A stretch of 64,000 nt of DNA from Candidatus Heimdallarchaeum endolithica (GCA_021513715.1 CP084167.1:1888001-1952000), one strand, 5' to 3'; positions 27,671 to 35,423 are shown, counted from the stretch's first letter. Translations and numbers: made by a program. The notes: generated by a model from the sequence alone, not told the origin.

Positions 27671-30130
27671 CTAAAACTCGAGATAAATAATTTGATTCTC
27701 ATCATCAAGAGTAATTTTCTTGGAATTTTTACTAAATGAAGAAGAATCATTACTTAAAGTCTCAATTGAGTGCATAGCTTTTAAATCAGCTGAAAAATCG
27801 TTTAATTCTGGAGGAATATAGGCACGTTTAATGGGAGTCTTAAGAGACAATCCCAGATCCTTCTTTTGTTTCCAAATAGTAGAATTTAATTTCAATATCA
27901 ACTCAGTACTTTCAGTAAACCTTGATTCACGAATTACATCATCTGGTTGAGGCATAGATTCTGTATGAACGGTTTTATCATACAATTCTCTATAAATGAA
28001 GTCAGTAACAAAAGGTATTATCGGAGCAAAAGCTTTCAATAAAATGTCTAAGACTTTATGAAGAGTAAAATGGGCGGATTTCTGTTCCTGTTCTGTGAAT
28101 TCATTGTTTCTATTATAGGCCCGACCTTTTACAATTTCTAAGTAATTAGAAGCAAAAAGATCCCAAGTAAATTTTCGTAAAGCCCTAGCAGGTTTGTGAA
28201 AATCAAATATTTCATAACCTTGTAAAGCATCCTCAATTGCCAAGCGCAATTCAGACAAAATCCATACATCAGTTGAAGTAAGAGAATTTTCGTCTATATC
28301 CTCAGCAGACGGAAAACCGCTGACAAATTTAGCAATATTATAAAATTTATTGATAAATTTAGCAATACCTTGTAATTTCTGCTCACTAAAACGGATATCA
28401 CTACCATGACTGGCTTCAGAAGCACCAAATAGGCGTAAAGCATCACCACCGTATTTAGCAATCATCTTCTCAGGTTTAACAATGTTACCTTTAGATTTAC
28501 TCATTTTCTCTCCTTTGTTATCAACAACATGCCCAGATATCCAAGTCTCTTTGAAAGCAGGTTTGTTGTACAACTGTAATGCACGAAGCATTGTATAGTG
28601 AAGCCAAGTCCTAACTATATCTTTACCTTGAGGGCGCATATCACAGATGTAGGGGCGAGAATTAAGTTTTTCAAATAATTCAAGATCTTTTTTATTATAA
28701 GGATACATTTGAATATAAATTTCAGAAATAGATGAATCCATCCAAGTATCAAAAGTCCGTGTATCACCAATAAAACCTTTAGATTCTCCACAGTGCTCAC
28801 ATTTATCAAAAGGAGGATCATCTCTCCAAGGCTGATAATAGGGACCAGGTTCAGGTAAACAAGGCTTTCCACAAGATTTACAATACCAAATGGGAATCTC
28901 GGTACCATAATATCTTCTTCTACTGATTGGCCAGTCAATAGAAACTCTATCTAACCAATCTAACCATATCTGCTTCATAAATTCAGGATAAAAAATTAAT
29001 TTGTCAGCATAAGATCTTAAAGTGTCAATGTAGTCAGTTTGTTTAAGATAATACTCAGGCATAGCCAAAAATTCGACAGGATTATCACAGCGAGAACAAA
29101 TAGGAAAGTTATGAGGAACGTCAGTTTCAGATTTAATGAACCCAAGCTCCCGAAGTTTATCAGCAATTTGTTTTCGAGCTTCTTTTACTTTCAAACCTTG
29201 AAATTCAGGAATATTCTCATTAATTTTACCATCAGTATCGATGACAGTCCTAGGTTCAAGTTGAAATTCACGAAAAACCTGCACATCACCAATATCACCA
29301 TAAGCGCAGACCATCAAAATGCCAGTACCGAAATCCATTTTAGCATAATGATGAGAGCGGATAGGAACTTCAACATTGAAGTAAGGAGCAATAGCAGTTT
29401 TGCCCTCCAAATGTTTGTAACGCTCATCTTTAGGATTAAAAATAACTACACCAATAGCAGGAATTAATTCAGGGCGAGAAGTGGCAATAATTAATTCTTC
29501 TCCAGTTTCTTTAACCTTAAAAGCAATATCATATAAAATATGAGTGCCTGGTTTATAATCAATCTCATTATCAGCTATAGTAGTTTTACAACGAGTACAG
29601 TAGTTATTGGGACGATCATCTTCATAAACCAAACCTTCACGGAAAAGTTTGATAAAAGTGCTTTGAGTAAGAGCACGGTATTGAGGGTGATCAGTCTTGT
29701 AAATTTCATCCCACTTAAAAGAATAGTTACTAAAGCCGAGAAATTTACAAACATTTAAAATCTCATCGCCAACACGATCTAAGATAATACGACATTTATC
29801 AAGAAAGTCCTCGCGAGGAATGTCATGCATAGATATTTTGAACTCTTTTTCAGTTTGTACCTCAACAGGAAGACCATTGCGATCTAAACACATAGGAAAA
29901 AGAACTTCATGACCAGTCATACGTTTATAGCGAGCAATCATATCAATACCGCTATAATGAATAGCCCCACCCATATGCCAAGGGGCGTTTGCATAAGGGG
30001 GAGGAGTGTCAACACTATAAATAGGCTTGCCAGAGTTCTTATTGAAAGCATAAGTTTTCTCTTTTTGCCATAATTCAAAGATTAACTGCTCATCTTTTAA
30101 TGGGTCATATCGCTTCTTTAATCGATTCAA
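27671..30130 (-). CDS. valS: Valine--tRNA ligase, archaeal type
   Basis: VDTPPPY, HMGG (HIGH), DWPISRRRYYG, DTWMDSS, KMSKS. Confidence 0.93.
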   Translation of the reverse strand: MNRLKKRYDPLKDEQLIFELWQKEKTYAFNKNSGKPIYSVDTPPPYANAPWHMGGAIHYSGIDMIARYKRMTGHEVLFPMCLDRNGLPVEVQTEKEFKISMHDIPREDFLDKCRIILDRVGDEILNVCKFLGFSNYSFKWDEIYKTDHPQYRALTQSTFIKLFREGLVYEDDRPNNYCTRCKTTIADNEIDYKPGTHILYDIAFKVKETGEELIIATSRPELIPAIGVVIFNPKDERYKHLEGKTAIAPYFNVEVPIRSHHYAKMDFGTGILMVCAYGDIGDVQVFREFQLEPRTVIDTDGKINENIPEFQGLKVKEARKQIADKLRELGFIKSETDVPHNFPICSRCDNPVEFLAMPEYYLKQTDYIDTLRSYADKLIFYPEFMKQIWLDWLDRVSIDWPISRRRYYGTEIPIWYCKSCGKPCLPEPGPYYQPWRDDPPFDKCEHCGESKGFIGDTRTFDTWMDSSISEIYIQMYPYNKKDLELFEKLNSRPYICDMRPQGKDIVRTWLHYTMLRALQLYNKPAFKETWISGHVVDNKGEKMSKSKGNIVKPEKMIAKYGGDALRLFGASEASHGSDIRFSEQKLQGIAKFINKFYNIAKFVSGFPSAEDIDENSLTSTDVWILSELRLAIEDALQGYEIFDFHKPARALRKFTWDLFASNYLEIVKGRAYNRNNEFTEQEQKSAHFTLHKVLDILLKAFAPIIPFVTDFIYRELYDKTVHTESMPQPDDVIRESRFTESTELILKLNSTIWKQKKDLGLSLKTPIKRAYIPPELNDFSADLKAMHSIETLSNDSSSFSKNSKKITLDDENQIIYLEF

Positions 30131-35423: not shown

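Follow-up and report, generated by a model that had tools for sequence, protein, structure and literature searches.

We analysed a 64-kb window of the chromosome of Ca. Heimdallarchaeum endolithica, which corresponds to C1:1,888,001-1,952,000 of the 3,326,783-bp chromosome; coordinates without the prefix C1 or the name of a contig or species are counted within this window. Genes are longest-ORF calls. Skew was read at four-fold sites on the plus strand, in 500-bp bins along the locus. The genes and features around tRNA-Ile(GAT) are the following.

25500-36200, no strand: the whole footprint, with the plus strand purine-rich left of tRNA-Ile and pyrimidine-rich right of it, weaker with distance (500-bp four-fold bins)
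25993-27436, minus strand: rps3 and rpl22, the weak outer left arm; plus strand A59:T44 and A34:T19
27671-30130, minus strand: valS, valyl-tRNA synthetase (Pfam); plus strand A200 T31 G39 C10, sense T200:A31
30281-32128, plus strand: PAS-GAF-GAF sensor gene (Pfam); sense A130 T20 G20 C5
32213-32326, plus strand: tRNA-Ile(GAT) with an anticodon-loop intron, the flip centre, hypervariable (Rfam, H. aukensis alignment, strain contigs)
32340-32870, no strand: segment of ~500 bp found in H. endolithica strains and not in H. aukensis, already pyrimidine-rich
32432-32704, minus strand: 90-codon ORF inside this segment, no Pfam match
32976-35423, plus strand: hef, helicase and ERCC4 nuclease (Pfam); sense A38 T234 G7 C25, fading along the gene
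35448-36131, minus strand: pyrH, UMP kinase, the outer right arm; plus strand A18:T46

The tRNA-Ile gene was missed by ARAGORN with default settings and misnamed tRNA-Leu with -i; its identity comes from Rfam, whose match spans 32213-32323, and from the H. aukensis ortholog. Of all tRNA-centred flips in the genome, the one at this gene is the strongest (z = 16.6). Four-fold sites on the plus strand are A330:T51 to its left and A56:T280 to its right (odds ratio 32, Fisher p = 2e-85). A sequence-only reading of the window had described an A-to-T flip. The A/T change is real, but it does not stand alone: G tracks A and C tracks T, making this a flip from purines to pyrimidines on the plus strand. 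Purine counts change over between ~32190 and ~32400. That gene direction plays no part, as the same reading held, is borne out by the neighbouring genes, since valS (minus) and the PAS/GAF gene (plus) are both A-rich on the plus strand, and hef (plus) and pyrH (minus) are both T-rich.

The extent of the two arms needed correction. The A excess placed over ~4.5 kb left of the tRNA is confirmed, but this arm continues weakly to ~25500. The right arm had been thought to revert inside hef at ~34380. Silent sites of hef stay T-rich throughout (T72:A1, T56:A3, T49:A11, T39:A14 and T23:A9 in successive 500-bp bins), and the fading T excess extends to ~36200. The apparent reversal is due to the K/E-rich C-terminus of the protein.

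In other genera hef and valS have orthologs without skew (e.g. T101-127:A97-129 for valS), and the identity of these orthologs follows the species ranking. Thus, neither protein composition nor transfer of the individual genes explains the skew, and the earlier reading was right to look for a cause outside them.

The ValRS encoded here has HMGG where the HIGH motif is expected. The PAS/GAF gene is split into two calls in one H. aukensis-like contig (L221:7852-9655). In one metagenome contig (L225:2470-2700) hef comes directly after rpl6, the two being joined at a common TTTTA repeat, as a result of either an inversion or an assembly error. Elsewhere in the window two genes bear inteins (1040-3559 and 5331-9341), and the intein at ~1600-3100 is missing in H. 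aukensis.

Flips across the genome and in relatives

The whole genome was scanned with a 2.5-kb flank test, in which a flip is a site with z of 6 or more. This gave 32 purine-to-pyrimidine flips; peaks of the opposite sign are mostly shoulders of these. A tRNA lies within ~700 bp of 14 of the 32 flips (p = 7e-11), in agreement with the claim that the footprint is local, strand-asymmetric and recurrent. The other centres are CRISPR arrays, 23S and 16S genes or their ends, both thermosome genes, EF-2, actin, ileS, secY and repeat-bearing surface-protein genes. Within the window the scan bears on these further features.

4445-4551, plus strand: tRNA-Ser(GGA), which serves as a negative control within the window, without footprint and with exons identical between species
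9464-10906, minus strand: secY, with a second centre of the tRNA-Ile polarity near its 5' end (~10670), z = 10.9
10983-17820, no strand: 6.8-kb island at secY, missing in H. aukensis (synteny blocks), holding an LRR gene and a second copy of the secY 5' part (~13358-13701)
57301-58188, plus strand: tRNA-Leu(TAA, intron) and tRNA-Val(TAC), a centre of the tRNA-Ile polarity, z = 10.5-12

The polarity at the secY junction is therefore the same as that at tRNA-Ile, as had been proposed. In the pooled profile, skew drops near-linearly from 0.52 to ~0 by 5-6 kb, and it is symmetric, with 0.53 on the origin-proximal and 0.51 on the distal side. For the pooled tRNA centres, no effect on skew was found for tRNA orientation, for head-on versus co-directional position or for the origin-proximal versus distal side. 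On the strand that runs outward, four-fold sites near the centres have T 0.72, C 0.10, A 0.14 and G 0.03-0.04, as against T ~0.43, C 0.07, A 0.42 and G 0.07 away from them. At two-fold sites on this strand, G for A is up from 0.20 to 0.33-0.37, and T for C is slightly up. The skew does not depend on neighbouring bases. An Rfam scan of 16 non-tRNA centres gave no convincing RNA genes, and BLAST found no motif or GC-containing repeat shared across the centres.

Polymorphisms within 4 kb of the centres (a small sample) comprise 56 Y>R and 34 R>Y; flux balance is rejected at p = 0.026 and equal rates at p = 0.001. Such an imbalance is expected under any fixation bias, including selection on base composition, acting through chromatin, termination or translocase-guiding signals. 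We nevertheless see hardly any likelihood that such selection, or horizontal transfer of biased genes, made the flips. The absence of context dependence, the smooth decay within single genes, the single plus-strand ratio shared by opposite-strand neighbours, and the flat, kinship-ranked orthologs of hef and valS all argue against it.

Among tRNAs, skew increases with codon demand (rho 0.34-0.40), those for rare codons being weak, and C34 tRNAs have a skew of 0.06 versus 0.35 (p = 0.003). This dependence on demand would fit a transcription-associated asymmetry, in which the non-template strand loses A at strong bidirectional promoters or R-loops. The centres include both rRNA genes, both thermosome genes and EF-2, and genome-wide the sense strand is slightly biased with the same sign, which would also fit. 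However, skew is flat or weak at EF-1a, ATPase B, enolase, PAN, GDH, the SRP RNA and the ribosomal-protein operon, the bias is independent of gene direction and equal upstream and downstream of tRNAs, and the centres in the middle of ileS and in the middle of IS elements have no known promoter. We therefore consider transcription an improbable cause.

Most flips are found at orthologous sites in H. aukensis (3,081,793 bp), within the 800 kb that was compared. Among the other relatives, G025, which belongs to another family, and G005 have a strong tRNA-centred bias. This bias is weak in G012 and G002, whereas in G026 and G028 it is of keto type; G030 and G027/G029 lack it. A very strong flip of the same polarity was seen in G025 C30 (L359:2000-7000), where no tRNA is listed.

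One-sided half-footprints were seen at C1:1011770, 1260570, 2171890, 2899090, 2969870 and 3184860. These are probably old centres that were split by insertions or rearrangements. Flanks displaced by insertions showed no decay of skew, in a comparison that is uninformative.

Replaced loci and mobile elements at the centres

The flips are real, recurrent and conserved. With slightly better than even confidence, we infer that they are the long-term footprint of repeated two-sided, strand-specific recombination or break repair centred on the same loci. Repeated break repair with biased fill-in, which the sequence-only reading had offered, stays a leading option alongside biased mismatch correction. 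We count in favour of recombination the rotational symmetry of the flips, irrespective of gene, tRNA or fork direction, the skew in the flanks of the large CRISPR array (+0.80 and -0.69), and the unrelated IS families in which the flip lies mid-element and the host flanks are nearly flat. Singleton (new) mutations in IS copies are strand-symmetric.

The tRNA-Ile genes of H. endolithica and H. aukensis are separated by ~25 stem-compensated base differences, next to an upstream flank that is ~95% identical. Four stem-compensated alleles occur among strains that are 98-99% identical elsewhere (the window; L221, L224, L227, L002). Variable DNA thus accompanies allele turnover at this locus, where the species-specific ~500-bp segment at 32340-32870 is a possible element remnant. 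The genes for tRNA-Ile2, Gly(TCC), Asn, Phe, Cys, iMet and Lys are also replaced between the species, and most weak-skew tRNAs are unchanged. Turnover, scored by hand, is only marginally linked to skew strength (p = 0.07-0.17), a weaker link than that with anticodon class.

A swap is also seen in ileS (C1:1824283-1827441), which is a mosaic relative to H. aukensis: identity is 60-88% over residues ~541-950 and 92-100% outside them, with 94-100% in the part up to ~residue 540. The skew flips at the mosaic boundary (~residue 540), mid-gene and without a known promoter or RNA gene. The replacement between species of tRNA-Ile, tRNA-Ile2(CAT) and the C-terminal half of IleRS hints at selection on isoleucine decoding. 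The overlap of the flips with swapped loci is, like their geometry, scale, spectrum and conservation, a direct observation.

Some centres count against recombination. The exons of tRNA-Trp and tRNA-Val(GAC), both strong centres, are unchanged, and the thermosome and EF-2 centres have no clear breakpoint. Several inteins carry LAGLIDADG nucleases and are therefore presumed to mark homing sites. No footprint was found at the 13 intein sites, which is a further point against recombination and indicates that the process is not homing-endonuclease conversion.

Interspecies synonymous divergence is below 0.12 in 40% of the 2-kb windows within 2 kb of centres versus 6% far off, the windows not being independent of each other. 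Near centres it is 0.21, where 0.30 is expected from composition. Within species, divergence doubles at 1-2 kb from the centres, among few strains. Lower interspecies together with raised within-species divergence is as expected from allele exchange; like the mosaic tracts, it is an indirect sign of recombination at the centres, and selection on core genes could account for part of the lower divergence. It should be noted that the divergence of the flanks is lower, not higher, and that allele exchange confounds its reading as a mutation rate.

Mobile elements or their remnants are found at tRNA-Asn, Gly, Phe, Leu, Pro and Trp, at the 16S 3' end and at secY. Short SecY fragments in the sequences of other strains suggest that secY may be a recurrent insertion site. 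The use and replacement of tRNA and rRNA loci by mobile elements is known from tRNA att sites (PMC8371274) and from aloposons, HeimV1 and HeimV2 (PMC8813620). The sequence-only reading had tied the footprint to integration hotspots, and many centres are indeed hotspots of insertion or replacement. Yet the HeimV1 site at tRNA-Gly(CCC), the best documented att site, is nearly flat, although it lies beside the only tyrosine integrase of the genome. Att-type repeats are present at tRNA-Leu(TAG) and Pro(TGG). We found no attL/attR repeat at tRNA-Ile or Ile2, no copies of parts of tRNA-Ile nearby or elsewhere, and no integrase at the tRNA-Ile border, the sole PF00589 match in the genome being at C1:29,735.

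A footprint specific to site-specific integration, left by the elements' own machinery (e.g. by in-situ replication before excision), would agree with the elements at several tRNAs, the 16S 3' end and secY and with the integration of aloposons at tRNAs (PMC8813620). We consider it very unlikely. Besides the nearly flat HeimV1 site, neither the flanks of CRISPR arrays nor the interiors of IS elements are att sites, and integrases mostly target rare-codon tRNAs (PMC8371274), a class that is weak here. Integration is moreover conservative and makes no kb-scale skew. The skew is therefore not the clean genome-wide marker of att sites that had been hoped for, since CRISPR arrays, IS interiors and the mid-gene breakpoint of ileS are centres as well.

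Several features of the elements and their targets were observed in addition. In H. endolithica an aloposon at tRNA-Asn (C1:2352059-2352249, 2390385-2390608) has as its borders a truncated native tRNA and an inverted, diverged full tRNA with promoter. In H. aukensis this aloposon is found between two tRNA-Gly genes (L067-L068, 2,019,686-2,056,547). Short inverted copies of target ends also occur after the 16S 3' end in H. aukensis and after actin. HeimM2 (H. aukensis 1,930,500-1,938,200) duplicates the 3' end of 16S and bears a LAGLIDADG gene that is strongly T-rich. In H. endolithica a 44-kb element lies between 16S rRNA and tRNA-Arg(TCT), and the chromosome sequence ends in tRNA-Gly(CCC). 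Both tRNA-Lys genes (C1:2516100-2517430) have a T-loop insertion that is missing in H. aukensis, and were missed by ARAGORN; tRNA-Lys(TTT) is inverted and diverged. The 23S rRNA has an intron encoding a LAGLIDADG protein (C1:2132985-2133661), missing in H. aukensis, and the 23S centre is on the 3' side of this intron.

Recombination and local replication as possible sources of the strand bias

If recombination made the flips, events would recur at loci that are swapped or invaded, namely certain tRNAs, rRNA ends, CRISPR arrays, secY, ileS, actin, surface-protein genes and multi-copy IS. In each event the strand running 5' to 3' away from the centre would be handled unlike the inward strand, over tracts of up to 5-6 kb, and would lose A (to T, G and C) and some G, and gain T. 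The two sides of randomly placed events would cancel, whereas breaks or selected allele swaps on one spot would add up. In a repeat, where homology is bounded by its ends, the flip would come to lie mid-element. The bias itself could be one of fixation, if mismatches in heteroduplex DNA are corrected unevenly, or one of mutation, if resected DNA is refilled in an error-prone way.

The composition can be reproduced by letting the outward strand lose more A, but the rate should then be 47% higher, and no such rise is seen. Under a fixation bias the rate should be lower, and a simple EndoMS version of this bias, with the preferences from PMC4838380, misfits the C frequencies. In the polymorphisms near centres, a small sample, SNP polarity falls between the pure mutation-bias and fixation-bias models. 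H. endolithica encodes NucS and MutS, and across the relatives NucS is neither needed nor sufficient for skew. A model with EndoMS only was rejected, as it misfits C and does not track the presence of NucS across genomes.

Gene conversion in Haloferax involves multi-kb tracts and requires Hef, Hjc and NucS (PMC11276520), and the scale of the arms is like that of such conversion in polyploid archaea. Unequal handling of mismatches, as in the preferences of EndoMS/NucS (PMC4838380), could bias fixation without a higher mutation rate. Known biased gene conversion acts on GC versus AT and is strand-symmetric, whereas the putative conversion here is strand-specific and GC content is barely changed.

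Short or abortive replication bubbles at the centres, primed by R-loops or elements or started from dormant origins, could also leave a skew through leading/lagging asymmetry. The polarity is origin-like, as the outward strand has an excess of A->G and C->T at two-fold sites, and its T>A sign is that of the chromosomal leading strand. The tRNA-centred skew of G026 and G028 belongs to the classical T>A, G>C type, and divergence is not raised at centres. The rRNA, CRISPR and high-demand tRNA genes are untranslated and prone to R-loops. The asymmetry at CpG islands (PMC2817419) offers a comparison.

We regard local replication as unlikely all the same. With the centres masked, long-range C/T skew inverts at ~2.10-2.15 Mb beside cdc6. 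This two-replichore skew inverts once only and keeps its sign across the centres; from it, oriC is probably near the cdc6 at C1:2,150,112, with tRNA and rRNA genes clustered around it. The origin region itself has only a weak local flip (z 4.7). Other Cdc6 genes lie at C1:1,201,560 and 2,280,138. None is near tRNA-Ile (C1:1,920,213), where the long-range skew keeps its sign across the site and no GC-containing repeats were found. Furthermore, decay within 5-6 kb would imply replicons that are implausibly small, the spectrum is unlike that of an origin, with C up and G down at four-fold sites, the ileS breakpoint and the mid-IS flips are left unexplained, and the genes for SRP RNA and the putative RNase P RNA have flat skew. 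Local replication initiation of the canonical type, one of the causes named in the sequence-only reading, thus fits poorly with a real origin that has a different, weak long-range C/T skew of its own and no strong local flip. Skew inversions at replication origins (archaeal oriC; human CpG islands, PMC2817419) share the sign change at a point and the outward A->G and C->T excess, but they span hundreds of kb, whereas ~30 sites here fade in 5-6 kb and transversions dominate.

In their geometry, flips of the tRNA-Ile type resemble the footprint of break hotspots. Smagulova et al. reportedly described, in 2011, a purine/pyrimidine skew flip at mouse hotspots. In humans, meiotic breaks carry strand-asymmetric mutation footprints to either side, within 2 kb (Hinch et al. 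2023, PMC7615360). Like mammalian meiotic DSB hotspots, where the pattern is attributed to resection and resynthesis, the flips are point-centred, rotationally symmetric, of kb scale and independent of gene direction. Unlike these, they occur in a prokaryote without meiosis, have arms of 5-6 kb rather than ~2 kb and a far larger effect (up to T72:A1), do not raise divergence, and are centred on tRNA, CRISPR, IS and swapped core genes instead of PRDM9 motifs.

Implications for Heimdallarchaeia

Local strand-asymmetric footprints are known from mammalian recombination hotspots and from origins, and here they are extreme and found in an Asgard lineage that cannot be manipulated. In the literature searched, whose coverage excluded most subscription journals, we found no report of local, point-centred strand-skew footprints in a prokaryote, and the word skew is absent from the genome paper (PMC8813620). 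We speculate, well short of even confidence, that Heimdallarchaeia may have focused recombination or break hotspots at tRNAs, CRISPR arrays and swapped core genes, with a strand-specific fixation bias. This would be a novel, purine-to-pyrimidine biased gene conversion that rewrites codon use over 10 kb and reveals hotspots in a single genome sequence, and a prokaryotic counterpart, in near kin of the eukaryotes, of eukaryotic hotspot footprints.

With either recombination or local replication as the cause, codon use near the centres is distorted, and codon-based estimates of expression, detection of transfer and prediction of origins can be misled. If local replication is the cause, initiation would be dispersed over tRNA and rRNA genes beside one oriC. 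If recombination is the cause, a skew scan of a single genome would map hotspots, old insertion sites and, through the half-footprints, rearrangements, and would give a handle on the length of resection or conversion tracts (5-6 kb) in Asgard archaea.
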